A DNA stretch of 57,418 bases, the filler included, from Jimgerdemannia flammicorona (taxonomy: Eukaryota): assembly GCA_003990765.1 (NCBI GenBank). It is 3 parts of 3 records of this genome, joined end to end, with 100 filler letters (N's around TTAATTAATTAA, not from the genome) between each part and the next. Parts side by side here need not be neighbours in the genome. Positions count along the whole stretch, not along the records: positions 19,174 to 38,246 come from RBNJ01002036.1; 2 more parts are not named here. One strand, written 5' to 3'. Under the pieces are notes generated by a model. It was not told the origin of the DNA. It saw only the letters and a program-made list of their open reading frames with translations, and ran no database searches. Position numbers and translations under genes: made by a program. Below, one piece after another: positions 1,425 through 38,346 of the stretch (positions are counted from its first letter, which is position 1; each line of letters begins with the position of its first letter).

Positions 1425-1426
<2 letters not shown>

Positions 1427-1669: not shown

Positions 1670-1860
1670 TTTTATTTATTTATTTATTTATTTATTTTTA
1701 TTTTATTTTATTTTATTTTATTTTATTTTATTTTTATAGTTACTTGGACTCAGCCATTTATTACCAGTCAATTGTTAAATATACAGTCTTCCTCCTACTA
1801 CTCAATCCCCATAGGGGGGCCTCTCCCTACCCCAACTCAAGCAAAGACCACCTTCTCCTT
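1670..1860 (-). mobile_element. 5'-truncated LINE 3' end inserted in LTR A
   Basis: (TTTTA)n tail on + strand; 16-bp TSD AGGTATTTTTATTTAT at 1654-1669 and 1861-1876; resembles the 3' UTR of the LINE at 23014-23110. Confidence 0.75.
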
Positions 1861-2329
1861 AGGTATTTTTATTTATAATAAGTCTTTTGAACTATTTCTA
1901 TAAGTCTTATTTGAATTACTACTACTGTGGTTTCTTGATTCTTCTTTTATATTCCTTGATATGTCTGTCTTGTAGTCATGATGACTCATAGTTGGTCATC
2001 ATTACTCATCTTATAGCCTAGGTAAGTTATACTATATAATCTTCTTGTATTCTGATCTAGTGACTTGTAAGAAAAAGCTATCTTCTGTAATGATATTATC
2101 ATTCTGAGATCACTATTACATCTTTTTCCTGAATAAGGATCTTCTCTTGAACATTCTTATTCATTGGTCCAGTCTGAAAAATTTGCTGATCTCATAACCT
2201 CTGATAGAGGGTTAAAAAGTGGTGTTTATGGGCTGATATTTTTCCTATATATTTTGGCATGATAGTGAAGAGTCACTCTCTTTATATAGAGCAAGGGTCT
2301 GATTCTGATCTTGACCAATCAGTTGATGG

Positions 2330-3600: not shown

Positions 3601-3659
3601 AATAGCTGATTAATTTATAGTATAGCTCCTTATTCATATTGAATAGTCTTGATGAGGGT

Positions 3660-4950: not shown

Positions 4951-5139
4951 GTAGTATTTAGATTCTTGATTGTAGATGTCTCTGAAGTCTATGGCAAGTA
5001 CTCCTTCATTTTGGTACAGAATCTTGAGAAGTTGTTCTTCTAGGGAAAAGTTTTCTCCAATGATATATGTGTGCTTGTTCTGGTCCTTGTCTTTCTTGTG
5101 CTTGAGTTTGGTAATCTTGATAACAGTATAGACTTCTCT

Positions 5140-5555
5140 TCTAGTAGATCCAAAGTCTTGTTCTTCTCTCTTGATCTTGATGAGTTCAATGGCTTCAGTG
5201 ATCTTAGGCTTCTTGACTTCATGAATCAGTATCTGGCCAATTCTGTTATGCTTCTTGACTTTAAATAGAGTGGTGGGGTTGTGATTCCTGACTATAAGAA
5301 AGATCTCACCAGTATAATTAAGGTTAATTACTCTTCCTTTAACTGAGATTTTACTTTTGGCCAGACTACTTCTGGTCTTGATAATTCTGGTATACTTTTC
5401 TGACAACTTGACTCCAATTCCAGTACCAAGTAGAGTGGTGGTCTGTGGTTCAAGAATAGCATCTTGAATGCTGGCAAGGTCTATTTCTATGGCTCCTTCA
5501 GTCTTATATTCTGGGATCTTAGCTTCAGGATGAAACTTCTTGACCTTGAGAGTAA
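5140..5555 (-). pseudogene. dUTPase domain of element A, between PR and RT
   Basis: KVKKFHPEAKIPEYKTEGAIEIDL..GTGIGVKL..IKTRSSLAKSKISVKGRVINLNYTGEI..RIGQ..REEQDFGST matches trimeric dUTPase motifs 1-5 with substitutions. Confidence 0.85.
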
Positions 5556-5929
5556 TGTCTGATTCTTATTCCTCCTCATCATTACTATCAGCTTGAAGCT
5601 CTGGGGGCTGGTCATCTTCTTCAGCTTTCTTTTTTACTTTAGCAGTTTCTTGCTCTTACTTTTGTTGGTGGATTTTCCTAACTTCACTAATATAGGACCA
5701 GCAGTCATTTAGATGTTCAGAGTAGTACATTCTAGTATTATGGGGGCATCTTCCTTGAGGGGTATAGCCATTGATGATCTTATTGTACCACTGCTCATCT
5801 GTGAGCTTGGGTGTCTTACTCTTGTTCTTGTACACTGAGTGTATGAAGACTTCTGTGTCTTCTTCATCTCTGTCCTTCATGTCTAGTAGTACTCCTTTGT
5901 AGATATTGATAGAGACTTGTATCTTTCTT

Positions 5930-6250
5930 TCTCTATAGTTGATCTGTATCTTCTGAACATTGAGGTCAATGATGGCCTTGGCCTTATAAAGCTATTAGTT
6001 GCCAATAAGAATGTTATAGTTAGTGGTGCTTATAATAATCACATCTACTAAGATAGTAGCTCCTCCTATCTTGATGAAGACTTCTTGAATCTTGCTTAGA
6101 GGGATAGCTTATATATCATCTGCTATAACATAGACCATTTTGGTAGACTCTTCAATATCCCAGCCTAAGTGGTCAATTGTCTTCTTACTCATAAAGTATC
6201 CTCTAGCATCAGTATCAATGATGATATCAAGATACAATTTTCAATCTGAC
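5930..6250 (-). pseudogene. Retropepsin aspartic protease of element A
   Basis: IIIDTDARGYFMSKKTIDHLG (degenerate DTGA) ... NYNILIGN..LYKAKAIIDL. Confidence 0.7.
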
Positions 6251-6599
6251 ATAGAGTATAGACTGATATCTTACACTGATCTTCAGATTCTTTATCTGAG
6301 TTCTCAGATTCTTCTTGTACATTGTGAGCTTCTATAATCTTGTACTCTTAGTTCTTGATAGTAGTTGTAAGTCCTACTCTTAACTGCTATCTAAAGGTAG
6401 GAACTTCTGCTAGTTATTCAAAAGTAGTATTGATCTTCTATTCCTTGAGGTCCTTGTAAATATCATACTGATGGATCTTAGTCTTGTACAGCTTCTATTC
6501 TTTCTTGCTTTTACTTTCTCCTGAGACTGAAGTAGTGCCTTCAATAATTTGGCAGACAGCTTTATCTAACTCCATATCTTGATCAATCTCCTCAGGTTG

Positions 6600-7750
6600 G
6601 GTCTTGCTTTAAATAGTAACAGCTGGGGTCTTTTTTAGTCTTTCAATTGGCTTACTGTTGCCCTTCTTATTATAGGGCTTAGACTGAGTTCTGATACCTT
6701 CAGTAATAGGGTAGAATTTAGACTCCTTGTAGTATTTTTTATCATCAGTATCCCCAATCTCCTCAATGACTACTGTATTGATTTGTTCTCTGGTTTTGGT
6801 AGTATTGCTTAGTTGGGCTTTGCATCTTGTTTCAGTCATACAACTCTTTGTATAGTGGCATTTTTCTCTATATCTGAAGTATATGATATTGTATTCTTTT
6901 ATAGCAACTGCAAATCTCTGTACTGGTCTCCTGTTGGTGCTTTAGACTTCTCTAACAATATCACCAAGGTATGCAGTTATCTCAGCAAACTGCTTGGCAA
7001 GTTTCTCCACTAGATCAGCTTTGGCTATCTTGAGGGTAGGTGGAGATAGTTGTCTGTTTACAACTGTGATATATACATATGACACTGGTTGACTTTTGTA
7101 GCTCTATCTTAATACTAGTTATTTTCTCTATTGAGTGTTTGGCGGAGTGTCTAGTAGTCCAATATCTCTATATAAAGATCACTTTCTGGTCAAGAGTCAG
7201 AGCAACTGGGATAGACTGGATTACTAGGGCAATTTCAGAGTAAACTCTTTTGAGAAAGGTTAAATTAGCTATTTGTTCCTTGAGGGTATCATCATAGCCA
7301 GCCAAAACAATCTGGTGGTAGATTCGAGTATAGAATAAGTTGAGATCTTCATTAAGTCTCTGGAAGATAGTATTGAGTTAATCCTTGAGAGCTTGCTTGA
7401 TCTTTTCATTATAGTATATAGTTCTAAGAAAGTTCTTTATATTGGAAAGTTTGGCTGCACCAATATTAGTAATGGTGACTATATTGAACTTGTCTCTGGT
7501 AGATCCTCTGAGGCTGACAGGTAGAAGAGCCAATTGTATATCTATGATGAGGGCTCATATGGTGGCAAATTGTTCAAAGTCTTCAATGAAGATCAGGATT
7601 GACTCTTCAGTAATATATCTATAGAATATGGAGGGATGCATTTCTATCTTATCTTGAATTCTTGCAAGGTAGTCAAGGTAGTTATTGTGATATTTGTTTG
7701 TTTTTTAGCTTAAAAGTGAGAGATTTATCTTGAATCACTAGTTAATAGAC
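6600..7750 (-). pseudogene. gag of element A with decayed CCHC knuckle
   Basis: Gag-like FIEDFEQFA and IFQRLNEDLNLFYTRI segments; YFRYREKCHYTKSC at about 6840-6885 is a mutated CX2CX4HX4C. Confidence 0.6.
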
Positions 7751-7838
7751 ACCAAGTTGTTACATATATAGTAGTCACTGAGTTCTTCAAATATGTCAGA
7801 TTCTCTTTAAGGTATATCTCTTAGACTAACTATAAGTT

Positions 7839-9330
7839 TGTTATAAGTAAGTTCTTATTGGAGTACCTTCCTAAGGTCTTATAGTCCTCAAACTTCTTAT
7901 CTTTAAACTGTCTTATTATCTCTTAGATTGCTTATATAGAATTGAGTATAAGTGAACTGAAATTGACTTTATTTTAAAGGAAATAAGAGGAGTATTTATA
8001 CAAAATATAATTCAATGGTTGCTAAGTTATAAAGCTAAATATAAATTCTAATAACCAAATAAAATACTAGAATATAGAAAACTATAGTTGTAAGTACAAA
8101 TTCAAATATCTATACAAATGATTGTATAAGTTCAGAATGCTAGTAGATTTTGGTAATATAGGAAAAGAGTGTCTAAAGATTCAGGTGTTATAGAAAAAAG
8201 ATACTGATAGAATTTAGTTACATATGTAGAAAAAGGATACCAGAAGATTTTTGTATTACCAAGAACTTAGAGCAGAATGTTCAAGACTATGGGGGCTTCA
8301 TCTTTATTGCTACTAGAGATCAGGATATCCTCAAAGGAAATGAGGTCTATGAATGTTTTATCTGTTTTATATGTTTCATATATGTCATGTGGGATGACAT
8401 TATCACTAGTGATATCATCACATTCAGTAGTAGTGGGGGCTCTTCAATCTATGACATTCTCTTCCACAAAATAAGAAACAAATGTGAGGTCTTGGAGAGA
8501 TCTAACCTGGATGCTGGGGCCTTGAAATGCTGAGATCAATTCTTGTATGAATTGATCTGGATTTTCCTAAAGAATGAGATATCAAAACTCTTCTATTTTA
8601 TCACTATTGAGAGTGATGATAGACTGAGCTTCTGTGGCCACCATGGTCTCCAGGGCATTGGTACAGTGGGCTAATAGTTCCTTGAAGTCTGAGATTCTAG
8701 TATACTCTAAGTTAGAGATTGATTATGGTATATACCTAAAGATCTGATAAATCTTCTTAGTTGTTCTTATTTCACACACATATATAGGAGTAGCATCTTG
8801 TATTTTTTGAGGACTGGTCTGAGAGAATTCCCAGTAAAGGAGGTTTCCTATTTCATATTCCTGCTACATTCAGAGATATTCAGTAGCAATAGTGATCCTT
8901 ATTTCTATTTTGCAGTGGCAGAGAATATAATGATAAGAATCACTAGTACCCAGGTTAAGGCTAGGAGTCCTTCTTGTATAGGTTCTCATAGCTCTTCTGA
9001 TGTCTTGGAATATTCTTTTCTAGACTGAGAGGCCTTGGTGGTTTCTGGACCTTGAGGTTTGGTGAGCAGTAGGTATTTTTGTTTGTGGTAAGTCTTTTGA
9101 ACTATTTCTATAAGCCTTGTTTAGATTGCTACTACTGTGGTTTCTTAATCCTTCTTTTATATTTCTCAAGATATCTGTCTTATAGTCACAATAACTTATG
9201 ATTGGTCATTATTACTTATCTTATAGTCTAAATGAGTTATACTGTATGATCTTCTTGTGCTCTGATCTGGTGGCTTATAAGAAAAGGCTATTTCCTGTAA
9301 TAATATCATCATTCTGAGATTACTATTATA
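7839..9330 (-). repeat. 5' LTR of element A (~1.5 kb; lower boundary approximate)
   Basis: Right end ...ctattata at 9330 (CA mutated to TA) matches 2120; minus-strand TATAAATA at 7993-8000; TG at 7839 lies next to a decayed PBS-like sequence. Confidence 0.7.
8280..9030 (-). pseudogene. Degenerate LTR(U3)-encoded accessory ORF of element A
   Basis: RIFQDIRR...QEYEIGNLLYWEF...KKIYQIFRYIP*SISNLEYTRISDFKEL, then an acidic tail (TECDDITSDNVIP); aligns with ORF 20002-21018. Confidence 0.65.
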
Positions 9331-9493
9331 ACATATAAGAATTTTATTTTTTTTATTTTTTTTATTTTATTTTTATTTTTATAGCAATAGTGTTTTAAAA
9401 TTTAATCTCAATTTGATAAAGTACAAATCTTTAATAATTAAAATTTATGCTAACAGAGTAATTAAATCTAAATAATACTTAATAACTTTACTA

Positions 9494-11080
9494 TTTTTTT
9501 TTTTTTTTTTTTTTTTATAAAATATATTTTTTATTTTTTTTTTTTTTTTTTTTTTTAATAAACTCTAAGTCTCATAGATTTTTATTTAATAAGAACTTAG
9601 ACTATATAAGCTAAAACCCTTCTCTACTCTACCCTGAATACTACATCCCTATTAATCTAGACTTATTATTGTCTAATAGTTCTACTATATTAGATACAGT
9701 AAGGCTATATAACCTATATCTCATTCTATATACTATGCTATCTTTACTACTTGAGAAAAAATAACTATATATTAATGATCAAAAATACACATATAAAAGC
9801 TAGATTACAAAGCTTCTATCATCTCAAATAGAGTAACAGATAAAGAAAAAATCTCTCAAAAGATATAAAATAATAGATAGAACCTAGTTCTCTCTGATGA
9901 AATAAGTGAAAAACTTATATGTAAGATGAGAGAAGATCTCTAATACTCTACTACTCAAGTTTATAGGCCTTGATTATATAACTACATCAGCTCTTAGTTC
10001 TAGTTGAGTATAGTCTAAATACTCAATCTGAATAATCTTAGGCTTCCCAATAATTTTAAATAACTAGAGCCTAATTCTATATATATATTATTAAAAGTAG
10101 CTAAGAGTAATATCTACTATCTAACCACTCTATATCAATCAGAAGGTCTCATTGATATAGTGTCTACTCTAGCTCTAATAACTATTACTAGTCTGGTACC
10201 TGACTAGTCTACTATAATCTTCTTTCTACCTATCTATAATAGCTCTCATCTTGATACTATCTGAAAAGCAGTTACCTATATAGAATTATACTTATAAAGA
10301 AGCTTGTCAAAACTTAAAGAGCCCCATTACAGATACTAAAAATCTATAGATAACCTATACTAATACTTAACACTCAAGATTAGCTGACTTTTTTTTTTTT
10401 TTTTTTTTTTTTATAGTCTCTTAGACTTCTATATTTATTACTAAACTAATTTATAATATTAAATATATAATAACCAAATTTTCTATCTAATTCTCTTAGA
10501 GTATCTCTTCTTTTTCTCTATTTTTTTTATAGTAAAATACTATTTAATTATTAATAACTACAACCTTCTTATTACTTTTGCATAAATTCTCTCTACTAAA
10601 TAATAATAGTGACTATCTTAGAGACTCTACTCTCTATATAGTCAAACATATACATATAATATCTATCATCAATCTCTCTCACTATACTACTCTCTTCTTT
10701 AACTCTATCTATTTCTCTTTCTCAAATACATATAATCAATATTTAGCTAACTCTATCTATACTACCAAAACTTATCTAATAATAATCAGCTGACTTCTTA
10801 TATAACCTATAATATATTAAAATGATATCTTATTAGTAATAGCAAAAGAAAGAAAGTACTATACTAAAAATGAGTATATTCCAGATATAGCCAAAAGTAC
10901 ATATTAAAAACTATAAAAAAGTAGAAAAAACACTAATCCAACACTAATAAAGAAACAACTCATCACCATTACCTCTCTATTACTGCTCTATAATAGGTAT
11001 AGTAAACTAATCTGAGATAGAGAAGATATAAGTTATAGAAAGAGAACTCAGAAGATTACCTACCAAAACCTTATTAATAA
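9494..11080 (-). mobile_element. Heavily mutated copy of the 1.2-kb poly(A) retroposon
   Basis: Poly(T) at 9494-9557 followed by a reverse-complement match to 226-1393; interrupted at 10391-10784. Confidence 0.75.
10391..10784 (-). mobile_element. 5'-truncated LINE 3' fragment nested in the retroposon
   Basis: Poly(T) tail; TSD AT(T/C)AGCTGACTT at 10379-10390 and 10785-10796; 3' end resembles 1735-1800. Confidence 0.65.
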
Positions 11081-11175
11081 CTTCACTGATAGATAATCAA
11101 TTAATAAAATGAAAGCTTGATACTTTAAATAATATTACATCTACTATGCTTAGTATATTTCATATTTCTCTTTAC

Positions 11176-11447
11176 TTTACAGACTCAGAGTCCTGTGGAT
11201 TTTTATTAGAAAGAAATCCAGACTATATAGACCAAAACTCTCTCCTACTATCTATTGAATACTACCTCCCTATTAAACTAAGCTAGCTATTGTCCAGCAG
11301 CTCAACCATATCAGACATAGTAGGGCTTATAGTGGTCTGTATCTCATTCTATATATCATGCTCTCCCTATTATCAGAGGGAACTCAGCTATATACTAATG
11401 ACTGAAAGTGTATATCTGAAACTCCAATATATATATAAGACTATACC
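11176..11447 (-). mobile_element. 3' fragment of the 1.2-kb retroposon, cut by LTR C
   Basis: Reverse-complement match to about 1125-1392; similarity stops abruptly at 11447. Confidence 0.75.
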
Positions 11448-12804
11448 TATAATAACTCTTATTTCTATCTCTCTCTTATCCTTTGGATACTTAGAGAAAT
11501 AAGATATTACTTAGGGACTTAGTACACAATGTATATCAAGAAACCTTTAGTTTGAGAAAGTACTCATTTGAAAGTAGTTGTAGTGATAGTACCTTATCTT
11601 TCAAAAGTCTTTCTTATTAGTCCTATCTTCTAAAGATCTTATTCTTTACTGTATATAGACTGAATTTACCTTGGAATTTAGGTTCAATGGATTTACTTAA
11701 GTCTTTTGTAATTTGTATACTGGTCTCACTTCTGGTAGAAGTTAGCTAGGCTTCTGGAGTTTAGTTAGAAACACTAGAGTCACTTAGATGTCATTACTAA
11801 GACTCAAGAGAATGTGTGTGTATAGGGGGGGGCTTGATTCTTATAACAAGAACTGAACTAAAACTACTTTATTTCAGATAGAAACTAGAGGTATTTATAC
11901 AAGTTAGTCTGTGATTTCTGATTAAGTATGAGTGACTAATTTGGTAACTATAGTGAGATTTATAATCATAATCTTTGTCAGATAGTTTGTGGCAAAAAAT
12001 ACTTTGTAATCAGAACCTTAATTACTAGGCAATAATTAGCTACTGTAGTAATGGTTGTTGCAGTACTGATTGTTGGAGATAAGCTGGATATTGTTTTTTG
12101 TATCATTTGCATCATTTATTATATTCATTATTCATAATATTATATATTATACTCAATTGTATGATGATATCATCACCAAGTTACATGATTACTTGTTGTG
12201 TCTTATCTGTTCACTTGTTCATTCTATTATATTCTTCTTTTCTTAGAAATCAATATCTTTATTGATTCAGAAATTGAGAACCAGGTGAGAGAAAGATGAA
12301 GAATCTTTCTCAGTATTGTTTCCTTCTCCTTCAGTAATAGGAGGAGTTATTGCTAGTGGCTTAATGTCTAGAATAAAAAAGTCAATGAGGTCTGCAAATG
12401 GTTCTTGAACTGATATAGACATTGGTGTAGGGGTTCTCTATTTAATATAGTTGAGATCATCTGGGTTCTTGATCCTCATGCCTGGAGATATCCATTTAGA
12501 TGAGTAGTCCTTCAAAGAGATCAGAGAGACCTTGGAGCCATTGGTCTGAGTTGTCATTTAGAAGGGGGCTCTAGTGGGGTTTGCAGTTAGTAGACTTGAA
12601 AGTAATTCAGAAGTTGGTTTTTTAGACTATCTTGATCTCTAGCTCATCAATTTCAGAAAATGAGAGATTTTAGAAATTCTTCAATTATATATAATTGAGG
12701 TTAGGGATTGCAAAAGGTATATAATACATAATTTGATAGATCTTCTTGGCTAGTCTTTGCTCATACCTATCCAGATTGGTCCAGTCTGAGACCTGGTCAG
12801 TCAA
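11448..12804 (-). mobile_element. Partial LTR of a third family (C) with U3 ORF remnant
   Basis: Begins at the retroposon break; minus-strand TATAAATA at 11892-11899 as in LTRs A and B; 12620-12800 translates LDRYEQRLAKKIYQIMYYIPFAIPNLNYI*LKNF*NLSFSEIDEL. Confidence 0.6.
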
Positions 12805-12926
12805 CAGCTCCTTTCTCTGCTATCTTACTGGTTATAAGATTTGATAGGCAACCTTCTAAGTTCCCTTTCCCCTATTATTACCCCCTTTACCTTGGATTAG
12901 TTTGCTGTGCCTATAGGGGCATAGTG
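12805..12926 (+). mobile_element. 5' 120 bp of the 1.2-kb retroposon, cut by element B
   Basis: Matches 226-345; similarity ends at the TGTAAG of LTR B. Confidence 0.8.
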
Positions 12927-14401
12927 TGTAAGAGGGTTGCTTTTTAGGGTAACCGTTACATAGTTCTGGAAGGGTTTTCTGGATATTCTGGATATTCTGG
13001 AAGACCATTTTCTTATGGTCAAGATCAATTTCGTATGGAGTACATCCTCTATGCTTATTGATTTCAAGATTGGGTTGACATCTCAACCAAAGTCCTTTTC
13101 CGGACTAGTTCTGGATGTTCAGGATTTTCCGTATTTCAGAAAGTTCAAGAAACTAAGACCAGCTTAGTTGAATTGGCGTATCGCTGCAGACAATACCCAA
13201 TTAGGAAATTTCATGATGGGGTTAGGAGTAGGACCTAACGGGGAGCGGATTTACTTAAGAGTGGGTTGTGGGTTATGGAATAGGTTTATTTGCTATTCAT
13301 GATATTGCTATACTAAGAGTATTTGTGTGAAGGAATATTGTGGGGAAGTATTCAGAATGTTCTTGTCTGTTCAAGTCTGAGATTCTGAGGTCTGGGGGAG
13401 GGGGTATTTATACTAGTGAGGGGCTATCTGGACTATGCTGAATATGGATGTAGCACTAAGTGCCTTGCTGAGTCGGAATGCAGTCATGTAGTACAAGTGT
13501 GATCTGACATGTCAAGAGATTATCTGACTGCTGAGTCAGTTCACAGTCACGTTGTACAAGGCTAATCTATCTATACTATGACTGCTAGACTATTTATAGG
13601 TTTAGGCACTATCTGGGTAGTTCTTGATGACATCACTATTGATGACATCATCACTGGCAAAGTCTGAGCAGTTTTTCTGACATCATCAGTTTTCAAGATA
13701 TCGTTACATCTATCTCTTGTAAGATTAAGGCTGTCCTTGGTGGCGGTGGTTGTACAAGGATAACAGGTCTTGGTTCTCTTTTTTTTTGGTCTGCTGGCGC
13801 ATTTGCGAGGACTGGCCATTCTCGTCTAGGGCAAGGGCTCCCAATGTCGCGGCTGGGGGTTCGAACCTCTCGGAAATGATATTTTCTGTAATCCAAGGCA
13901 ATTTCTAGTAGTAATATCTGTCACGTGGATGGCTTGAGATTGGTTTCGACATTGTCAGCTTTCTTGAGTTCAGATGAAGCGTCCATCACTCTCCAACGGA
14001 GGTGACACAGATAAAGCGAACAGAGTTGTTCAAATGCATTTTACTTCTGCTAAGTAATGAGGTCTTGTATAGTCACGGTATATCTTGGTCTTGAGTTGAT
14101 AAGTGCAGTTCGTGAACCTTTTGATGGGTGAGATAGGGTTCTTCTTGTCTTGATTTGAGTTTGGTACTTTCAGTTTCTTTTGTAATAGTACAGTACACCA
14201 AACTAGCTATAGCAGTTCAGAGTCAGTCTTATGGTTGTAGTACTTCTTCTAGTATTCTTGTATCTTAGCGGTGGGTTCTCGTGCTTGCTGGCGTATTTCA
14301 TGTAACCAGATGATCTCTTGTTTTGTAGTCTCACATGTGGTTTCCGAATTAGTTCTAAGGATACCATGCGATTTTGGTGGCTTGGAGGTTGTGCGCTTAC
14401 A
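12927..14401 (-). repeat. 3' LTR of element B (1475 bp)
   Basis: Inverted ends TGTAAG/CTTACA; PPT GAAGGAGAGAGT on minus strand at 14402-14413; TATAAATA at 13405-13412. Confidence 0.92.
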
Positions 14402-17400
14402 ACTCTCTCCTTCTTAGCTTTCGACGTCCTCGTCGGGGCCTTCTAATTTGTTCTGGTGTTGTTGTACCATTTGGATGGTTCTTGTGGCTATTTTTGTTGA
14501 GGATTTGTTCAACCTTGTATTCTTCTTGGTCATTAATAATAACAGGTGCAGGTGGTTCTGTGGTTCAGTTTGAAAATGTGTCTCGGACCTTCTGGAGTAG
14601 TGGTCTGACACGGCTGTCAACTTTAGAAAAATCCTCTTCAGAGTTCTCGGGTTCTCCTTTGGATGGTCGGATGGAGATGGTGAAGAGAGGGCATTTCTTG
14701 GCCAATTTCTTGAGTTGTAGCTTGTTGATGTGGGTGATCTTTGGTCCAGGGTCACTAGAGTTGAGTGAGTCCTTTTCACCTTGTAGTTTGAAGTTATGGC
14801 ATCCTTTCTTGATGGTCAGAGAATGGTTTACCCAATCGATCATAGGGTTCTCTTGTTTTAACCATGGGGTCCCAAGGATGATTTCATTGTCAGGAAGTGG
14901 TACGATTTGGAGGGTAACATATACTCAGTAGTCGCCAATTCAGAAGGGTAGATTGCGGACTTCTTTGCTAATAACATGTGAGGTTCCATCAGCTGTAGCA
15001 ACTGCTTGAGTTTGCTGTACTGGGGAGGTGAAGACCTTGAGTCTGTTGGCTGTCTCCTCATTGATGAAATTGCCTGAGGCACCACTGTCTATCATGATCT
15101 TGACAGGTGCTCCGTTGACAAAGGCTTTAAGGGTGAGCAGTTTGTCTGATCCAATGGTGGTGATTTCGGTTGTAGGAGCCTTTCTTCTGTTGGTTCTTCT
15201 TTGAGCCAGTTCGTTGACATAAGAGAAGCAATCATCAATCATTCAGGAAGAGTACATTCCAATACCATGAGGGCATTGGCCACTTGGTACATATCCATCT
15301 TCTATCTTCTTGTAGAATTGTTCTTCTTTGCTCATAGTAGATTGGGCTGGGGCCTTGTTTGATGAGCCAAATCCTTTGGATCCTTGGATAGTGGGTAGTA
15401 GTTCAGGGACTTCCTTGACTGTCAGAGTTGACTCGATTTTTTCGAATAGGATCTGGACGATGCAGAAACCAATAGGGATCTTGAAGGGTGTCCAACTGTG
15501 GTTTCGGATGAGGACAATAATTTCACCTGTATAATCTTCGTCAATGACTCCTCCTTCTACTGAAAGTTCTTTCAGTGCTAGGCTGCTGCGACAGCATATT
15601 CTTCCAACATGTCCTTCAGGGATTTGAATACTGATTCCTGTATAGACTTGTTTGACTTCTTGGTTGGAAACTGTAGCTTCTTCAGCTGCATACAGGTCAT
15701 ATCCAGCTGCTTTTTGATTTCTTTTGGTTGGGGCCTTAGCAGTTTGTCTTAACTTGACAAAGTCTAGTGTTCTGGTGGTCAGATTGTTGAGGTGGTGCAG
15801 AGTGGTAACAATTGCTCATGTTGCTGTTCGGGGTTTTCGGTTGGGGCAGGCACTGGCCATATGTCCTGTCTTTCGGCAATAGAAGCATGCTCCGCTTCTT
15901 CAAAGTTCATTCCTTTCACCTTCAGTAAGTTTCTTGAAGGTACTTGGCTGGGTGGGTTCAGGATTTCTGGGTGTCCAAGAGGTGGATGTGGAGGGAGCTC
16001 GGGATGCTTCGTGCTTGAGTTCTTCTTTCTTGGTCCAAGTCCTTTCCTTATTGTTGAATTGCCTTCAGGGCAGAATTGGTCCAGCTGTTAGGATTCGCTT
16101 GACCATGGTCTTGATTCTTGCCAGGCACCATTGTTGGTGATCGCAACCAACTGGGTGGCCTTGTTCTCGGATTTTTCTAGTAAGCCATTCAGGCAGGGCA
16201 TCAAATAAATGGTCTGCTCTTGTACCAATTCGTGCTTCGTCATTGGCAATATATCCTAGGCCAACAGTGTTCAGGAGTGACTCGAGTTTTGTACAGAAGG
16301 TTTTGAATTCTTCTTTGCCATGTACATCAAATTTGAGGTTGCGGAGTTTTACTCGGGATTCGGCAATCATGGTTTCACTGTGGTATTGAGCAATCATGAG
16401 TTGTTTGAGTCCAGGGGCTGCAGGATGGGCTCCATATCCTGGGACATTGTTTGCTGCATTCTGGGCAACTACTGCAGATCGAGTATCCCATGTGAGGGGT
16501 TTTTCAGGAAGGGTTCGCCACCATTCTTCGGCAGGTCCTCGGAAGAATGTAACAACTCGGCGGACATAGGCTGTAGTGGTAGCAAAGAGTTGTTCCAGGG
16601 TGTGGTCTTGATTGTTTGTCAGAACGCAGTCAGCAACTCGTTCATTGGTCCATTGATTAGCTTCAAAGTTGGTGTCAACTATACTAATAAAGCTTTGGAC
16701 TTCTTGTGCAGTACCATTGAAGGTAGATAGGCTCAGATTTTTGGTAGGTCGGGTCTGTTCGGCTAAGGCAGTAATGGTTGCTGCCATTATAGCTACTTGG
16801 GCTGTGAGATCTAGAATCTGTTGGTTTGCCATATTGATTGCTGGAGGCGGTTGGACTGCTGGTAGTGGTGTTACCGGTACTACTTGAGGTACTGGTGCAA
16901 AGTGTGATGGGGTTCTTTGGGTCTGTGTAAGTTGCTGGAGTAGTAGTTGTGGATCTGGAGTAAGGGCTTGATAGATAGCTGTTTGTTGCTGTGTAGGTAT
17001 ATTCTGTCCTGATGGAGGTACTTCTCCTTTGGTAGTATATCTGGGATCGAATTTAGTGAGATACTCCTCCTCCTCTTCAGTTTGGTCCCCGTGTAATTGG
17101 GTTTGCTCAGCATCGAAGTAGACAGAATCAGTAGTATATCTGATTTTAGATGGACTTAATTCAAAGTCAAGTTCAGGTTCGGTGTTGGTTTCAGATTCAG
17201 GTAGGGCTGTAGCAGGGCCTGCTTCGGGTTCGGGGTCAGATAGTTGATGAAGGGTTTCTCTTGCTTCTTCTTTAAGAATATGGCGGGCCTTGCTGTTCTG
17301 GAATTGGTAGTATAAGGCAGTCTTGGTCCTGGTACGGTGATAGTCGGTAGAGTTGAGCCACTTGGCTACAGAGGCTTGGGCTTTGTGAGGAACTAAGACT

Positions 17401-17525
17401 AGAAAGACTGCTGCTGGTTGTCCTAGGTCGCTCGGGATTTGTGGAGCTGACAAAACTCTTGTTGAGAAGAGTAAAGAAGGCTTCAATAAGACCTTCTTCG
17501 TCTTGACTTGCTGGGTGTAGTGCAA
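14398..17525 (-). pseudogene. Single-frame gag-NC-dUTPase-X-protease-chromodomain-remnant polyprotein with 7 internal TGA stops
   Basis: ORFs 16065-17525, 14940-15242 and 14565-14843 share one frame. Motifs: CFYCRKTGHMASAC (NC), AGYDL/RSSLA/GVIDEDYTGEI/GFGSS (dUTPase, 15360-15767), IMIDSGASGNFI (PR), PPAPVIINDQEEYKVEQIL (chromo start), end RRPRRGRRKLRRREL*. Confidence 0.88.
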
Positions 17526-17779
17526 GAAGTTTGGTGAATAGGGCTTCGCCTATTTGCTGGTTTAACTTGAGTACTTCTTTCTTTGAATGAAGTTTATCCC
17601 ACTTGTTGCAAGTGTGGAGGTCAAATTGTCCTTGTACGTCAGGTTCAATTCTCTCCAGATTGTCAGACGGTTCGGATAAATTCCAGTTCAGAGGTTGGGC
17701 TTTATATCAACTTGTAGGAATTCACAGGAGGGTTTGTAGCGGAGTGAGGAAGCGTCTTGAAGCGGAATTGGATTGAAAA

Positions 17780-17791
17780 CCGCTGCTACCA
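17780..17791 (-). promoter_or_regulatory. Primer-binding site of element B (probably initiator tRNA-Met)
   Basis: TGGTAGCAGCGG on the minus strand, 3 nt inside the 5' LTR end. Confidence 0.7.
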
Positions 17792-17794
17792 AGT

Positions 17795-19073
17795 TGTAAG
17801 AGGGTTGCTTTTTAGGGTAACCGTTACGTAGTTCTGGAAGGGTTTTCTGGATATTCTGGATATTCTGGAAGACCGTTTTCTTATGGTCAAGATCAATTTC
17901 ATATGGAGTACATCCTCTACGCTTATTGATTTCAAGATCGGGTTGACGTCTCAACCAAAGTCCTTTTCTGGACTAGTTCTGGATGTTCAGGATTTTCCGT
18001 ATTTCAGGAAGTTCAAGAAACTAAGACCAGCTTAGTTGAATTGGCGTATCGCTGCAGACAATACCCAATTAGGAAATTTCGTGATGGGGTTAGGAGTAGG
18101 ACCTAACGGGGAGCGGATTTACTTAAGAGTGGGTTATGGGTTATGGAATAGGTTTATTTACTATTCATGATATTGCTATACTAAGAGTATTTGTGTAAAG
18201 GGATATTGTGGGGAAGTATTCGGAATGTTCTTGTCTATTCGAGTCTGAGATTCTGAGGTCTGGGGGAGGGGGTATTTATACTAGTGAGGGGCTATCTGGA
18301 CTATGCTGAATATGGATGTAGCACTAAGTACCTTGCTGAGTCGGAATGCAGTCACGTAGTATAAGTGTGATCTAACATGTCAAGAGATCATCTGACTGCT
18401 GAGTCAGTTCACAGTCACATTGTATAAGGCTAATCTATCTATACTATGACTGCTAGACTATTTATAGGTTTAGGCACTATCTGGGTAGTTCTTGATGACA
18501 TCACTATTGATGACATCATCACTGGCAAAGTCTGAGCAGTTTTTCTGACATCATCAGTTTTCAAGATATCGTCACGTCTATCTCTTGTAAGATTAAGGCT
18601 GTCCTTGGTGGCAGTGGTTGTACAAGGATAACAGGTCTTGGTTCTCTTTTTTTTTTGGTCTGCTGGCACATTTGCGAGGACTGGCCATTCTCGTCTAGGG
18701 CGAGGGCTCCCAATGTCGCGGCTGGGGGTTCGAACCTCTCGGAAATGATATTTTCTGTAATCCGAGGCAATTTCTAGTAGTAATATCTGTCACGTGGATG
18801 GCTTGAGATTGGTTTCGACGTTGTCGGCTTTCTTGAGTTCAGATGAAGCGTCCGTCACTCTCCAACGGAGGTGACACAGATAAAGCGAACAGAGTTGTTC
18901 AAATGTGTTTTACTTCTGCTAAGTAATGAGGTCTTGTATAGTCACGGTATATCTTGGTCTTGAGTTGATAAGTGCAGTTCGTGAACCTTTTGATGGGTGA
19001 GATAGGGTTCTTCTTGTCTTGATTTGAGTTTGGTACTTTCAGTTTCTTTTGTAATAGTACAGTACACCAAACT
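17795..19073 (-). repeat. 5' LTR of element B (truncated by contig end)
   Basis: Direct repeat of 12927-14203; differences seen are almost all C>T/G>A transitions. Confidence 0.92.
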
Positions 19074-19173
19074 NNNNNNNNNNNNNNNNNNNNNNNNNNN
19101 NNNNNNNNNNNNNNNNNTTAATTAATTAANNNNNNNNNNNNNNNNNNNNNNNNNNNNNNNNNNNNNNNNNNNN
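19074..19173. other. Artificial contig linker
   Basis: N44-TTAATTAATTAA-N44; flanking contigs are of equal length (size-sorted concatenation). Confidence 0.97.
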
Positions 19174-19841
19174 GCCTGAAGATTTCCGCCGCCTTTTGAA
19201 TTATCCGCCGTATTTCCAGTTAAGCCGCCGTTTTCGAGAAGTCCGCCGATTCAGGAAGAATCCGCGTCATCCGCCGCCAGTTATCCGCATTCCCATAAAA
19301 ACCCACGCCATCCGAGTAGTATTCCCAGTTGAAGCCGAAACCGCGACATCCGAGTTATTCGTTATTCCCAGTGAGCCTAGGAAGAATCCACGCCATACAA
19401 TTCCCAGTAAGAAGAATCCGCGCTACCTTCTATTCCCAAACCGCCACTTTTGGACAACCCACACCAAATCGAGAAGTCCGCCAAAATCGTCCCGCCAGAA
19501 ATCGCATACTTTTGGAGATCGTCGCGCTACACAAGAAATCGCCCGCCACCCAAGAAGGAGAACCGCTAAATTACCAGACCGTCACGCACAAGGAGATCGT
19601 CATGCTACACAGAAATTGTGCCATTCCCAGTTGACCTAAGAAGGAAAGGACATACAAATTGCCGCTACACTCAGAGAACCGTCCCAATAAGGAAATCGCT
19701 CGCACAGTATCCAGATCTTGACTATTATACCGCTAAACACCAAGAACATTTTGTTGCTTTTAACAAAGTAACTGGGGGCTCAAGCCAAACTACATCAACC
19801 CCCAACCTTATAATTTGCCTCCATTGAGCCGGCACGTTACA
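19174..19841. mobile_element. End of a young, CpG-rich LTR-like element inserted in a B-family LTR
   Basis: Ends ...gcacgTTACA at 19841, after which B-LTR sequence (matching 13442 onward) resumes; internal gaagaatccgcg-type repeats. Confidence 0.55.
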
Positions 19842-21385
19842 ATATGGATGTAGCACTAAGTGCCTTGCTGAGTCGGAATGTAGTCACATAGTACAAGTGT
19901 GATCTGATATGTCAAGAGATCGTCTGACTGCTGAGTTAGTTCACAGTCACGTCATACAAGGCTAATCTATCTATGCTATGACTGCTAGACTATTTATAGA
20001 TTTAGGCACTATCTGGGTAGTCTTCGATGATATCACCATCGATTGCATCATCTCTGATGAAGTAGTCATCTAGGAAGAGTGGTTTGCAGATTACTTCTCC
20101 TTGTTGGCTGAGGTAGTAATACATTGGGACTTCATCTCCATCCCACAGGATAGCGTCATCTGTTTCGTATGCTGAATAAGGTGTTGGTGGGCGAAGAATG
20201 GGTGTATTGTCTTCGCTTTCGTCCGATTCACTGTCTGCGTACCTTCTATAGGTTACAGCACTATGAGTTGCAGGATTGTAGTAAGCTGGCGGCTGTAGTT
20301 TATGTTGCTCATACTCAGGTGGTGGAGTGGTTGGTTCAATCTCGAGGGTTGTCTGGAGGTACAGGTTGTGTTCTCCGGTCTCTTCATTGTAGTTGAAGTA
20401 GTCAGGGGTGAATGTAGGTTGGTATTCGTACCAGTGGTCATTGTCCCAATAAGTCTCATATATAGTTATGAACTGTTGTAAGTTCATTGGCAAGATTGGC
20501 GGAGTGATCAGGGTTGGCAGAGATCCTTGGCTAGAGGTCATGTCGGCGTCAGAGGGATCATTGTCTTCTGCTTCATCTTCATCGAAGTGAATTATATCGT
20601 AGACATCCTTCATAGCATATCCAACTTGGGGCATTTGCAGGATTTGATCGTCAGGGTGTGGGAAGGTTCTATCTGTAGTTTTGACGTACTCGAGATACTT
20701 GTGGTTGAGTTCTTGTATCATGTCATCGATTTGGCTATAAGACAGAGTAGCAACCATTTCGCTGGTAGTGACTCGGAGGCGGGGAATAAAGGTGTTGTAC
20801 TCATAGAAGAGTTCTCGATGTTTGCAGGCAATGAGCTTCTGGTGTTGAGACATCTGGGTAATGTCTGTATCATGGTGGTGTTCGACCATGTCTTCCAGGA
20901 GGTGGCCAATCTGGTAGTAGCTTGAGATTTGTCCGATTTGGTGGGCCTCGCTAAGCATGTTCAGGGCATTCCATCGGGCTTCCATGAAGTAGAGGGGTGC
21001 CAGGCTATGGATATTCATGAGGGGCAGAGGGGGTGTGGCTCGGTTGACAATGGTATTCCAAATGTCAGCATAGATGCAGTTGTAGATCTCAGGTCATGTT
21101 TGTGTATTTGGAAGTTGTGTTTGTTATTTGTTTTGGTTTTCTGATTCGATGTGTCTCGGTGCTCGGTATATATGCATTTAGTCCTGATTGGTAAGGTTCT
21201 GTTTGTGTGGATCTTGTGTTCTGTGACTTTGTATTGACTCAGCTTTGTGCGCTGTGACTTTGGTTTGACTCAGCTTCATGATCGAGCAGGTGATTTCCAG
21301 ATTTGTTCAGAGGTCGCGTGTGATTTCAGTGGCTTGTTCAGAGGGTGACATATAGTTTCAGTAGCTTGGAGGTTGTGCACTTACA
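19842..21385 (-). mobile_element. B-family LTR variant carrying a long U3 ORF
   Basis: 19842-20045 matches 13442-13645; the end gcttggaggttgtgcacTTACA matches 14380-14401; the interior differs from LTR B. Confidence 0.85.
20002..21018 (-). CDS. LTR-encoded hypothetical protein (338 aa; helical N-terminal domain, acidic/Pro/Tyr-rich tail)
   Basis: Open 338-aa frame inside the LTR; it may extend past TGA 21094-96 and TAA 21124-26 to an ATG at 21177; homologous remnants in LTRs A and C. Confidence 0.75.
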   Translation of the reverse strand: MNIHSLAPLYFMEARWNALNMLSEAHQIGQISSYYQIGHLLEDMVEHHHDTDITQMSQHQKLIACKHRELFYEYNTFIPRLRVTTSEMVATLSYSQIDDMIQELNHKYLEYVKTTDRTFPHPDDQILQMPQVGYAMKDVYDIIHFDEDEAEDNDPSDADMTSSQGSLPTLITPPILPMNLQQFITIYETYWDNDHWYEYQPTFTPDYFNYNEETGEHNLYLQTTLEIEPTTPPPEYEQHKLQPPAYYNPATHSAVTYRRYADSESDESEDNTPILRPPTPYSAYETDDAILWDGDEVPMYYYLSQQGEVICKPLFLDDYFIRDDAIDGDIIEDYPDSA

Positions 21386-21431
21386 ATTACTTACCAAACT
21401 ATTATGACCAGTAAGGTAGTAGAGAAAGAGG
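21386..21431 (-). mobile_element. 5' tip of another 1.2-kb retroposon copy, cut by the B-family LTR
   Basis: ccaaactattatgaccagtaaggtagtagagaaagag is the reverse complement of about 231-270. Confidence 0.7.
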
Positions 21432-22314
21432 CCAGATCTGTACTTCAGAGACTCAGCTAGAGTATATGTTCTTTCATCTCTAAATATTTTTATTTTCAAA
21501 ATGAACAAGTAGTGAATAAATATATACACAATTAGACTCTATCATTAGACTAGTTCAATCATTAAAGTTTTTTTTTTTTGCTTTAGTAAAAGTTGGATTA
21601 TTTTTTCAAATATCTCTGTTAATAATAAAATTAGTATCTCTATAACACTTCTCTTAGTAAATTCCTTAGTAGTATATCAGTTATATAGTATGTGTACTTT
21701 CTCTGAGTAATCAATTTCTATGATGGTGGCTAGTCAAGCATTTATGGAAAAAAGGTGTGGGAACTATATAGATATATTGATCAGCTACTATATATGAAAA
21801 TATTATCAAATGTCAAACTCTATCACACTCTATAGTATTGTCAGAATTAGAATAATTATACTGGAATCATAAAATATATATAATAATGATTTGTGCAGAA
21901 AGGCAGTAGTCAGAATAATAGTAAGATAAAGTGGTTAGAATAGAGTATTGGTCCCAAAAAAAGTTTTTACATCTAATTCTAACTTGTCTGACTTCTTAGT
22001 ATAGAGATTTAACTTGATTAAGGTAGTATACTATATACTTTAAAATAAATAAGAAATGAGTCAATATATACAAATCTCTATCAGATATAAGGAATATGTC
22101 AAAAGTAAAGTTAGTAAATATTAGAAATTTATTGATATGAAATAATATTAATATAAAATACTTATATATATAGAGATATTTAATAGATATAAAAGTACTA
22201 GATATATTTACAGCCCAGTTTGTTTGAGTCTGGTCAGGGTGAGTACACATAATGAAGCCATGAGGCAATGAATACTAAAGATGAAGTCCAGAGAGCCTTG
22301 TATGAGAAGAAGAA

Positions 22315-22378
22315 GTAGACTATATAATAACAAGTAAGGCTATATAATAATGAGTAAGACTATATAATAACAAGTAAG
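22315..22378 (+). repeat. 21-bp tandem repeat x3
   Basis: (gtaagactatataataacaa-like) units. Confidence 0.6.
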
Positions 22379-23013
22379 TGAGGAGATCTGATGAACCAAC
22401 TCAGAGATAACATAAGTATAGGTCAGGAGGGAGATAGTATATTATCAACATTACTTCTGCAGACTGATAAATATACTCTATAAATTGCACTGGCTTGAGA
22501 AATGTTTGTTTTGAACTAAAAAAAAAAAAAAAAGTGATGTTATCTAATTGTCATATCACTACTACCCAATTACTAAAAGAGTAGATCTTATTATATATAA
22601 TAAAGCTCAGTCTTGAAATATTAGAATCTACTTATATTTGTAAGAGATCAAAAAAGATAAGTAATAGCTGAGATTGACTGTCACAAATCTATATTATATA
22701 ATACTACTCTATCATCTATTCACTGCACTACAACTTATAATTTATATATCAGCTGAGAGCTGGTAAGTATACTTAAAGGAGCTCAGGAGATACACTTTTC
22801 TTACTGTATTACTTCCTGTTCAGGCCTTTACTCAGAACAATCATATCTCAGATTTAGTTATAGTCTATAGAGCTTAAATAATATATATGTATGAGAGGAA
22901 TTCTTAAGGAAAACATTGATTTACTTTTTTGAAAAAGTGATGATCCATTGGCTATTATTATATTAGTATAGTTCAAAATGACATATTTGTATTAAAAATA
23001 AAAAAATTAACTT

Positions 23014-34689: not shown

Positions 34690-37400
34690 AAAATGGGGTG
34701 CGATTGCGGCTGCTCAGCTAAGGTTCCCAAGGAAGCATTTGCCGAGATGCGCGAGGCTTTTCAAGCTCTTTCCAAGTCAGAACAAGACATCTTTTTGATG
34801 GCGCAGCTCAAGTCTATGGACGGGGGATCAAGAATAGGGCTCGAGTCAATAAGAGAATTACCTACGAAATTTCAACAATTATATGTCAAAGCATAAATGT
34901 CACTTACCAAGAAGTTATTTCTGGACAAAGTCAGCAGGAATTAAATTCTAAGAAGTGAGAATTACCATAAACTTCCCAAGAACCAAAGAAAAAATCAAAA
35001 TATTAAAAGAGTAAAAGATTGTATATAGGGGTATATATTCCTTTATATTTTTAATGTACTATATAGAAAAAAAATTACAAAACCAGGCAAACTGAACATA
35101 AAAATATATATATGGTAAATGTTTTTTTTTTTTTTTTCCTATAGTATCTCAAAAACACATCAGGTAATATCTCTGGAAAATTCATCTTCATAAAATTAAC
35201 TCTCAATACTTGTCAATACTTATAGAATGACTTACAATTCAAAGCTCATAAAGAGGAAGAGATCTAAGATTTATTAAAGAAATATAAAGAATATCTTGCC
35301 AAAGCCAGGTTAGAATGAAACTATTATAATAAAAATACCAAGTTGGTAGAAGAATAAAGAAAACTTATCAATATTTACAGATAAATGCTAAGACTCAAAA
35401 TTATAGCATTGATGCAGTTGTCTATTATAGTTAGGACTGAACTCAGAATATCTATATACTTTATTCAGATCAACAGATCAGTAAGGTATATTATCTTAGT
35501 ACTTGTAAAGTATACTTATTTGATATCTAAGATAAAGTAGTATATAAGTAAATTAATTATATACTAGATGAGAATAAACTTCTTGAAAAGGATCTAAATA
35601 GTATACTTAGTCTAGTCTTTGATAGAATTAAGCAATTAAATAAAGATAAAAAGCATTTGAAAGTCACTTATAACAATGTGGATAGATAAAATAAAAATAA
35701 TACCACTCTTTAATTTTACTTGTATTTGATAATTACTTATTATTATAAAAGTATTAAATTGAACTTTATAGTTCTGGATCAGACTAAATTTAAGTATAAT
35801 AATAGATTTGACCTGATCAAAAGACTTTATCATCGATGTCCTTTTCTCTACTACATATCTTACCAGTTACAATAATTTGGTAGGCAATCTTCCGAGTCTA
35901 CTTTCCACAATTATTACCCCCTCTACCTTGGGTTGGTTTGCTGTACCTGTTGCAGGACAGTGGGAGAGAGGCAATGGTGATAAGTTGCCCCTTTATCAGT
36001 GTCAGATCAGTATCTTCTTTACTTTTTTGTAGTTTTTGATACCTTTAGCTATATCTGGAGTACATCTGTTTTAGTGCAGTGCCTTCTTCCTTTTATTGTC
36101 ACCAATAAGGTATTGTCTTGGTGTGTCTCAGGCTACATAGGGAGTTGGCTGACCTTGGGCATCAAGTGCTTAGTATAGGTTACCTGCAGGTTCTCGGTAC
36201 CTGTGGTGGGGCCCTCTGGCTTTGGCAAGCTTCCTGGTGAGCACAGTTCTGGCATAGGTGACTGCTTTTTGGATATTGTTGAGATGGGAGGGGAGATGGC
36301 CATTACAGATAGGAGGAAGGGTGATTACGGTGAACCAGTAGAGTGCCAGACTGGAGGCAGTTGTTGGGGCTGGGGCAGATACTGCTTTGGTGGAGCCTTT
36401 TGATTGGTGCAGTGTAGTTAGGTGGTAGGTGTCACTCTCAGCTTCTTTTGGCAAGTTGGTGGGTTAGGCTCCAGTTGTCAGAGGGGATCAGGGGGCCCAA
36501 GGCTACCTATTTCAGGCATCTTGGCTGCACTCAACTAGAACTAGGAGCTGATATGGCAATGTGATTGAGGCCCACAGACTTGAGTAGTGGAGTATTGAGG
36601 ATCTTTTCCCACCTTATGTATAAGTCCTTTACTCACTTTGACTGAGAGAACTAGGTCCTACCCATTATGTTGTACTTTGATAAGAGTTTTTCTTTATCTG
36701 TTATTCTCTTTAGGGTGGCAGAGGCTATTCTATTTGGCTCAGACATGGTCTTGTATATACATTGGGTTCTTGGGTGTGTGCTTTCGGTCATTGGCATATG
36801 GTTGGGTTTCCTCTGGTGGTAGGGAGAGCATGGTGCACAGAATGAGATATGGGCCACTATAGGCCCTACTGTGCCTGATATAGTCAAGCTGTTGGACAAT
36901 AGCTAGTCTAGGTTAATAAGAGGACAGTGCTTGATAGGTGGTGGGGGAGGGTTTTGGCCTATATAGTCTAGGTTTCCTTCCAATAAAAATCCATGGAACA
37001 TTGAGTCTGTTAAAAAAAAAAAAAAAAAAGACTTTATCATAAAACATCTATAGATTGTATAGATTATATTATAGATATAGTAAGAAGGGCTAGTATTATA
37101 ATAGTAGAGATAGTTGCCAATACTTTAATATTATAAGTAGTTTAAAAATCTACTTCAAGAAGCTTTCTGATATATAGAAGTTTCAATATTTTTATTTTAC
37201 TAGCTTTAGTCAAAATTTAAGAAGTCACAAATAGTCTATTTTAAGAATTCAAATAATTAAAAAATAGTAAATTAAAGGCTTCAAAAGTTATAGAAAAAAT
37301 CAAGATCTTGTTATTTTTGATGCTTGTACTTTTTATAGAATTGAAATACTAGAAATATATTTATTACAATATTTACCTATTTGTCAAAAATAAATTTAAA
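34690..37400 (+). mobile_element. Decayed Sola-like DDE DNA-transposase remnant, interrupted by the retroposon
   Basis: CDCGCSAK..FQALSKSEQDIFLMAQL; YKEYLAKARLE*NYY; degenerate DNC.GQNKN and GHTKF..D..FGLIKRLYH motifs, with frame resuming after 37040 (KTSIDCIDYI). Confidence 0.55.
35834..37029 (+). mobile_element. Full-length copy of the 1.2-kb poly(A) retroposon
   Basis: Colinear with 226-1424; poly(A) at 37012-37029; TSD AAGACTTTATCAT at 35821-35833 and 37028-37040. Confidence 0.88.
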
Positions 37401-38246: not shown

Positions 38247-38346
38247 NNNNNNNNNNNNNNNNNNNNNNNNNNNNNNNNNNNNNNNNNNNNTTAATTAATT
38301 AANNNNNNNNNNNNNNNNNNNNNNNNNNNNNNNNNNNNNNNNNNNN
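38247..38346. other. Artificial contig linker
   Basis: N44-TTAATTAATTAA-N44. Confidence 0.97.

Follow-up and report, generated by a model that had tools for sequence, protein, structure and literature searches.

The long terminal repeat (LTR) termed D here is a truncated minus-strand repeat in a 57,418-nucleotide stretch of Jimgerdemannia flammicorona DNA (assembly GCA_003990765.1), the whole of which is referred to as the window, and it holds a long open reading frame (ORF) in its own sense. The evidence supports this frame as a genuine coding sequence under purifying selection, present at the copy number of the LTR and lying in sense within the unique 3′ region (U3). The frame is probably a real accessory gene of a dUTPase-carrying fungal lineage of the Ty3/gypsy type, situated wholly in the U3 of an LTR of about 2 kb. 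The window copy of D is a relic, its LTR being broken at 19841 and the original start of the frame frameshifted. The features of LTR D, with positions counted along the window, are the following.

19841-21385, minus strand: LTR D in truncated form, comprising U3 and the first part of the promoter core, beginning TGTAAGT at 21385 and broken at 19841 by another repeat
20002-21018, minus strand: ATG-initiated frame of 338 amino acids (aa), with the stop codon TAA at 20002-20004
21095-21097, minus strand: start ATG of the D family (MTTEIY...), out of frame in the window copy, where 2 nucleotides (nt) are absent between 21091 and 21092
21187-21191 and 21167-21172, minus strand: CCAAT and TATATA, 75-95 nt upstream of the family ATG, a candidate internal promoter by sequence
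19991-19998, minus strand: TATAAATA, 3 nt past the stop codon of the frame, inside the core common to LTR B
19841-20063, minus strand: core common to D and LTR B, 88-91% identical to 13441-13663 and 18309-18531

The original prediction had described an open frame of 338 aa, and the frame is found as described. It spans 363 codons from stop to stop (20002-21093) and encodes 338 aa from the first in-frame ATG at 21018. None of 1000 dinucleotide shuffles of 19841-21385 reached 363 codons, the longest frame per shuffle having a mean of 99 codons and a maximum of 204. The frame begins about 290 nt past the first base of LTR D. Logan contigs from four public runs (X1, X2, X3 and X5) were aligned to 19175-22400, and in most of them two extra bases (GT) behind 21091 bring the ATG at 21095-21097 back in frame. 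The insertion occurs in nine contigs of X1 (depth 265 of 396), three of X2 (20 of 25), one of X3 (5.3 of 5.3) and one of X5 (4.3 of 10.2). Because most other contigs carry these bases, the window copy has evidently lost its original start through a 2-nt deletion. The N-terminus of P0002, a database protein discussed below, is MTTEIYN and matches this upstream ATG, and the sequence between TATATA and the family ATG contains no other ATG.

The contigs also identify D as a high-copy repeat, since in all four runs the depth is high from 19823 to about 21390 and falls to zero beyond 21443. Depth over the frame is similar to that over the non-coding ends of the LTR, again in all four runs. The 3158 contigs of X1 form a broad family when sorted by likeness to the window copy, with 340 at ≥99%, 962 at 95-99%, 1412 at 90-95% and 444 below 90%. 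Loose contig ends at 21385/21386 carry differing flanks, some of them with a polypurine tract; in three contigs of X2 and in X5 this flank is the reverse complement of GAAAGCTAAGAAGGGGAGAG, a tract that also precedes LTR B. Overall, the 5′ end of D is joined to a polypurine tract like that of LTR B in contigs of three of the four runs. At the other end, contigs of all four runs continue past 19841/19842 the way LTR B does, and the window copy was therefore broken at 19841 by another repeat (19175-19840). Exactly where LTR D breaks off, this repeat starts with TGTAACG (minus sense). It has short repeats inside it, in numbers that differ from contig to contig, and no match elsewhere in the window. 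LTR D has in turn inserted into a copy of a further repeat, repeat X (21392-21430).

The window holds no second copy of D, and the 3′ end of D is missing there. Its presumed status as a direct repeat follows indirectly from the junction contigs and from the LTR pair of a sister element, B, whose features are as follows.

12927-14401, minus strand: 3′ LTR of element B, with the start TGTAAGC at 14401 and no ORF in its U3
14402-14420, minus strand: polypurine tract of B, just upstream of the 3′ LTR
13591-13598 and 13405-13412, minus strand: TATAAATA, twice in the 3′ LTR copy, with AATAAA at 13285-13290
17795-19073, minus strand: 5′ LTR of element B, cut by a run of N at 19074 and ending ...TTACA
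17780-17791, minus strand: primer-binding site of B, TGGTAGCAGCGG, directly after the 5′ LTR
14402-17794, minus strand: internal part of B, comprising gag with a CCHC knuckle, dUTPase (5.7e-31), aspartic protease and a short tail (Pfam)

The two LTRs of B (12927-14204 and 17795-19073) match at 97% identity over 1279 bp. The first ~25 nt, TTGTAAG[T/C]GCACAACCTCCAAGC, are common to D and LTR B, with D starting as TTGTAAGTGCACAACCTCCAAGC and LTR B as TTGTAAGCGCACAACCTCCAAGC, and so is the core of 19841-20063 over 216-223 bp. This core contains the last 19 codons of the frame, its stop codon and the TATA motif, and those 19 codons are the only part of the accessory frame present in the U3 of LTR B. 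Downstream of the core, LTR B carries a second TATAAATAC, also found in LTR A at 7993-8000, and about 120 nt beyond it AATAAA. D displays the TGTAAGT start and the polypurine junction of an LTR, and LTR B the TTACA end followed by TGGTAGCAGCGG. Two claims of the original prediction are revised by this comparison: the LTR does not end at 21177 but reaches 21385, and the LTRs are not devoid of other DNA similarity, as D has both the 5′ end and the core in common with LTR B. Its statement that the frame runs in the sense of the element, upstream of the TATA common to the sister LTR B, agrees with the sequence and with the core alignment. The frame sits past the polypurine tract and the first base of the LTR, and with its end only 3 nt short of TATAAATA and both candidate promoters downstream of it, it would belong to U3, a placement that follows from motifs and conservation.

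Evidence for coding constraint comes from the differences among LTR copies. The test covers the 40 best-supported differences out of a total of 456. Within the frame lie 23 of the 40, and they divide into 16 third-position synonymous changes and seven replacements, against 32.7% synonymous expected for random transitions (binomial p 3.2e-4). This synonymous excess among LTR copies points to purifying selection on the protein. Three of the seven replacements (H64R, C90R and S120G) give a residue that is found in P0002 or P0001, which are the only true relatives of the frame among 1.84 billion representative proteins. P0001 (247 aa) aligns with residues 113-362 at 64% identity and 82% similarity, interrupted by only two in-frame gaps, and P0002 (128 aa) is 90% identical over residues 2-126. 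Searches of 5.8 billion protein clusters found nothing beyond these two, and alignment- and protein-based search of metagenome and viral contigs gave pattern matches only and no relative. A third candidate, P0003, was discarded; it is a 68-aa tandem-repeat protein with 25 spurious Pfam matches, and its score was inflated by six repeats.

The predicted protein is strongly acidic, with a pI (isoelectric point) of 4.2, 17.6% Asp+Glu and 4.7% Lys+Arg, and it possesses the acidic tail that the original prediction had described. In the AlphaFold prediction helices span residues 2-139, and the rest shows little regular structure. The mean pLDDT (predicted local distance difference test) reaches 32.7 in the full-length model and 36.0 in a separate model of residues 1-170, with every block below 50, so that neither model allows a fold to be claimed, and the N-terminal 170 aa singled out in the original prediction yielded no confident structure. 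The tail is long, rich in Asp, Glu, Tyr and Pro and mostly without predicted structure, and its acidic-aromatic motifs are conserved in P0001. PPxY-like motifs picked out in the tail by eye are not kept in P0001 and were dropped. The frame matches no Pfam family, the best hit of a sequence search of the PDB has an E-value of 0.24, and the Atlas holds no usable match for it. As judged by sequence comparison, the protein belongs to no known family and is a new protein family.

Frames resembling that of D were described in the original prediction for two further LTRs, here LTR A and fragment C.

~1-9333, minus strand: element A, AT-rich and decayed
7758-9333, minus strand: 5′ LTR of element A, ~1.58 kb, ending ...GTAACA, then TTGGTG..., with TATAAATA at 7993-8000
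8270-9040, minus strand: decayed frame of LTR A, beginning ~300 nt into the LTR as the D frame does, with 7 stops in 257 codons
12400-12810, minus strand: fragment C, related to the frame of LTR A and likewise decayed, disrupted by repeat X (12811-12925) and by element B

Both segments contain the peptides that the original prediction listed for A and C, with the 47/48-aa spacing given there. Pieces of the A LTR recur at 1-225, 1424-1667 and 1860-2118, and the decayed frame in LTR A is LTR sequence, because the 3′ LTR of A (1-225) repeats part of it. Fragment C, cut as it is by repeat X and element B, cannot by itself be demonstrated to be an LTR. At the protein level A (8270-9040) and C (12400-12810) are clearly related (Smith-Waterman score 132, z 19.9, reached in 0 of 500 shuffles), although a blastn search with 7-nt words detects no similarity between their DNA and their codon-aligned identity is 52%. 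The three different LTR families originally envisaged thus become two lineages, D on the one hand and A/C on the other, plus the sister LTR B without the gene. Protein-guided alignments give codon-based ratios of nonsynonymous to synonymous divergence (dN/dS) of 0.38 for A versus C and 0.27 for the 3′ copy of A versus C, and these carry little weight because their dS is saturated, which biases the ratio downward. The 5′/3′ LTR pair of A gives 0.77, as expected for decay after insertion.

The frame of D is likely to be homologous to these two, and a common ancient origin with the A/C LTRs is plausible, if statistically borderline. The comparison with C gives a score of 69 (z 7.4, 0 of 500 shuffles), that of P0002 with C a z of 8.2 (0 of 1000 shuffles), and among 2526 six-frame segments of the window C is the best non-self match of the frame with a score of 68. 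The runners-up in this ranking are the tail of LTR B, a DNA-level match, with 64 and the next unrelated segment with 54, and a Gumbel estimate puts C at an E of ~0.04-0.1. The motif blocks are colinear and equally spaced (47 vs 48 aa and 10 vs 10 aa), and the D and A frames both start about 290-300 nt into an LTR, in sense, in related dUTPase elements. The A frame is also depleted of stops, with seven against a shuffle mean of 18.9, and seven or fewer in only 1 of 1000 shuffles. Given a dUTPase identity of only 34% between A and B, an identity of 23-29% fits true homology of a fast-evolving accessory protein.

The alternative that the resemblance to A and C is due to chance, and that the gene is confined to the D lineage, is doubtful but retains some force; it is compatible with an accessory gene in U3 and competes only with the ancient sharing. 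It draws on the formal searches, all of which are non-significant: tblastn of the frame against C gives E=2, a three-sequence hidden Markov model (HMM) returns an i-E of 0.32 for C and no match for A, and hhalign gives an E of 0.2 with a probability of 0.3%, its alignment still displaying the colinear blocks of the original prediction. The frame compared with A alone is not significant either (z 0.7, reached by 122 of 500 shuffles), nor is P0001 compared with A and C (z 0.2 and 0.7). Fragment C, moreover, is not stop-depleted, its eight stops being matched by as few in 314 of 1000 shuffles. Of the two homologues originally proposed, that in C therefore stands as a borderline case at the top of the segment ranking, whereas that in A is not detectable from the frame of D by itself.

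It is rather improbable that the frame is a passenger, either a transduced piece of a host gene or a frame born by chance in U3, which plays no role and whose constraint is left over from before its capture. A passenger would be consistent with the lack of any known function or family and with an LTR B that does without the frame, and U3 regions can be highly variable within LTR families, as the available part of the account of crapaud describes (PMC10787394). Such a piece would not be expected to show mostly synonymous differences among the LTR copies (16 of the 23 listed in the frame) or a depth equal to the copy number of the LTR. Its relative at only 64% identity is still open, and a possible counterpart lies equally far into the LTR of a lineage with a dUTPase identity of 34%. 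No host gene related to the frame was found among the 1.84 billion representatives.

Slightly less probable again is a frame outside U3, transcribed from the upstream CCAAT and TATATA and forming the first cistron before gag in a very long R (repeat) region or leader: these motifs do lie 75-95 nt before the family ATG, which is the first after TATATA and stands behind a CA-rich leader, but besides the ends the only strongly conserved stretch of D and B is the TATAAATA core past the stop codon, the second TATAAATAC common to LTRs A and B downstream and then AATAAA in B fit a conventional order of U3, R and unique 5′ region (U5), and an R of >1.3 kb would be unusual.

If the frame is an accessory gene within U3, the U3 would be carried once in the 3′ end of the RNA and copied to both LTRs at reverse transcription, following the retroelement scheme. 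Because of this copying the gene would travel with the element and be duplicated at each insertion. The protein most likely acts for the element, because the copies that kept spreading also kept the protein sequence. Two routes of expression may be proposed. The frame could be carried on a sub-genomic or spliced RNA, as is sag of mouse mammary tumour virus (MMTV), or the CCAAT and TATATA inside U3 could drive it, with the poly(A) signal of the LTR ending the transcript. As to its role, we would guess at a protein-binding factor that raises the expression of the element or counters host silencing via its acidic-aromatic motifs.

Several points weigh against an accessory gene of this kind. Expression of the frame is a prediction from sequence, and the absence of the gene from the sister LTR B shows it to be dispensable in cis. 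The assignment to U3 depends on the conserved TATA core and on the analogy with LTR B, in which TATA is followed by AATAAA about 120 nt on. The synonymous test uses 23 sites that the tool chose as best supported from a total of 456, and the openness of P0001 and P0002 is subject to bias, because databases take open frames and their entries are thus skewed towards intact ones. The non-significant tblastn, HMM and hhalign scores, the lack of Pfam, PDB and Atlas matches and the low pLDDT of both models count on the same side. Direct DNA binding is made less likely by an N-terminal part that is not basic (K+R 6.9%).

A bolder extension of the accessory-gene reading, which we regard as unlikely, would make every LTR of the D lineage, solo LTRs included, a self-contained gene with a 5′ U3 promoter, a frame of 360 codons and its own poly(A) signal. 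Its product would be an acidic trans-acting factor kept since before the split of the lineages with 34% identical dUTPases, and it would boost LTR transcription or blunt silencing, each insertion raising the dose. The first bases of the LTR also deserve mention. The pol frame of B stops at a TAA made by the first bases of its LTR (TGTAA; 14395-14401), and the same bases in D read GTAAGT (21379-21385), a consensus 5′ splice site; splicing to an AG acceptor at 21141-21142, which was picked by hand, would fuse pol in frame with the accessory frame. In a still bolder variant, the GTAAGT at the LTR start might allow some of the transcripts to be spliced so that the integrase tail is fused in frame to the accessory protein.

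The left 23 kb of the window is a nest of minus-strand LTR elements. In element A the domains follow the Ty3/gypsy order, namely dUTPase (1.7e-17), RVT_1 (7e-23), RT_RNaseH (3e-19) and Integrase_H2C2 (9e-5), distributed over three decayed frames. Pfam detects no reverse transcriptase (RT), RNase H or integrase in the internal part of element B (14402-17794). Element B is for this reason a non-autonomous derivative, and it is likely to be a parasite of D-type elements. Its gag found no relative in the protein search. Neither A nor B has a chromodomain match in Pfam; the tail of B, ...EEYKVEQILNK..., presumably resembles the start of a chromodomain. In the U3 of LTR B (~13850-13880 and 18720-18750) there is a GGTTCGAACCC stretch like a tRNA T-arm, and Rfam and ARAGORN report no RNA gene in the LTRs, this stretch included. 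The original prediction assumed a genome that heavily mutates its repeats; the simple indices of repeat-induced point mutation (RIP) are mixed and do not clearly bear this out.

Repeat X, of ~1.2 kb, occurs at 222-1423, 35827-37029, 9527-11074 and 11165-11448 (both inverted), 12811-12925 and 21392-21430. It lies at nearly the same place and in the same orientation within the decayed frames of two diverged LTR copies of the A type, the A 3′ LTR and fragment C, which suggests a target preference or recurrent nesting. Runs of N stand at 19074-19173 and 38247-38346, the first of which hides the start of the 5′ LTR of B. Further to the right the window contains fungus-like genes (PP2C, TM7S3/TM198-like and Anp1) and a tandem array of 17-bp units at 43745-44800 (28 register copies of a 174-nt block). 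In the Atlas, the Anp1 fragment points no further than to eukaryotes, with Ascomycota as the most frequent group.

To our knowledge, genes within U3 are a textbook feature of a few complex retroviruses, and LTR retrotransposons are thought to keep their extra genes internal. Should the D frame be an accessory gene, the U3-gene layout would extend to retrotransposons, in a lineage of fungal Ty3/gypsy elements found abundantly in soil data. LTRs and solo LTRs could then be protein-coding, though annotation pipelines mask them, and the frame would provide a tractable candidate for the means by which an element manipulates its own expression or the silencing by its host.

The closest known arrangement is that of MMTV sag, a protein-coding frame that lies wholly in U3 and in sense, and hence in both LTRs of each integrated copy. 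The frame of D would likewise lie in U3, in sense, as far as its sequence tells. It has no sequence or Pfam relation to Sag among the 1.84e9 representatives. Sag is a membrane glycoprotein of a vertebrate retrovirus, whereas the protein predicted here is acidic, has no predicted strand-rich or membrane part and belongs to a fungal retrotransposon. The tas and bel genes of foamy viruses and nef of human immunodeficiency virus (HIV) are 3′ accessory genes that overlap U3 in part only, and of these Tas activates transcription in trans by means of an acidic activation region and is expressed from an internal promoter. The D frame resembles them as a 3′-terminal accessory gene that reaches into U3, but it would lie wholly within U3 and no sequence relation was found, and a transactivator role would here be a guess. 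Acidic activators of the Tas/VP16 type pair a DNA-binding or targeting domain with an acidic-hydrophobic activation region; the D protein offers conserved acidic-aromatic motifs, and neither a DNA-binding family nor a confident fold was detected in it.

The additional ORFs (aORFs) of LTR retrotransposons are placed in the internal region, in sense or antisense, by the available text of a survey (PMC7264820). According to the same text, sense aORFs lie between pol and the 3′ LTR, as in the plant elements Athila and Bagy2, and antisense aORFs occur in Grande, RIRE2, Retand and the fungal Boty. The D frame shares with them the character of an extra, family-specific gene beside gag-pol, without outside relatives and, to judge by its depth, probably kept in many copies, though the variant LTR B lacks it. 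It differs in that aORFs, as portrayed there, are internal and precede the polypurine tract, whereas the D frame follows the tract and lies inside the LTR, and in that sense aORFs are env-like with transmembrane segments, which the D frame is not.

A dUTPase in varying positions is described for fungal Gypsy elements in the accessible part of PMC2864245, namely chromodomain Ty3/gypsy elements such as Postia placenta PosPlaTy3, those of Phanerochaete and Tuber Tmt1. The elements of the window resemble the PosPlaTy3 type in carrying a dUTPase beside protease or RT, and A has the order RT, RNase H, integrase. One figure legend in PMC2864245 names an 'additional ORF with unknown function', the place of which is not readable, and the available text describes no gene embedded in an LTR. 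In the literature the term 'LTR ORF' refers almost entirely to MMTV (for example PMC2118998, in its available text), and in one fungal paper it denotes polyprotein ORFs (PMC12037069, likewise). The accessible part of the crapaud paper describes variable 5′ LTR halves and no gene (PMC10787394). The literature search, which took in texts and left figures and supplements outside, returned no account of a fungal retrotransposon with a conserved gene in its LTR. The layout proposed for D, a U3 gene for a new protein family in a fungal Ty3/gypsy LTR, is a variant on the aORFs of LTR retrotransposons and on the U3 genes of retroviruses.

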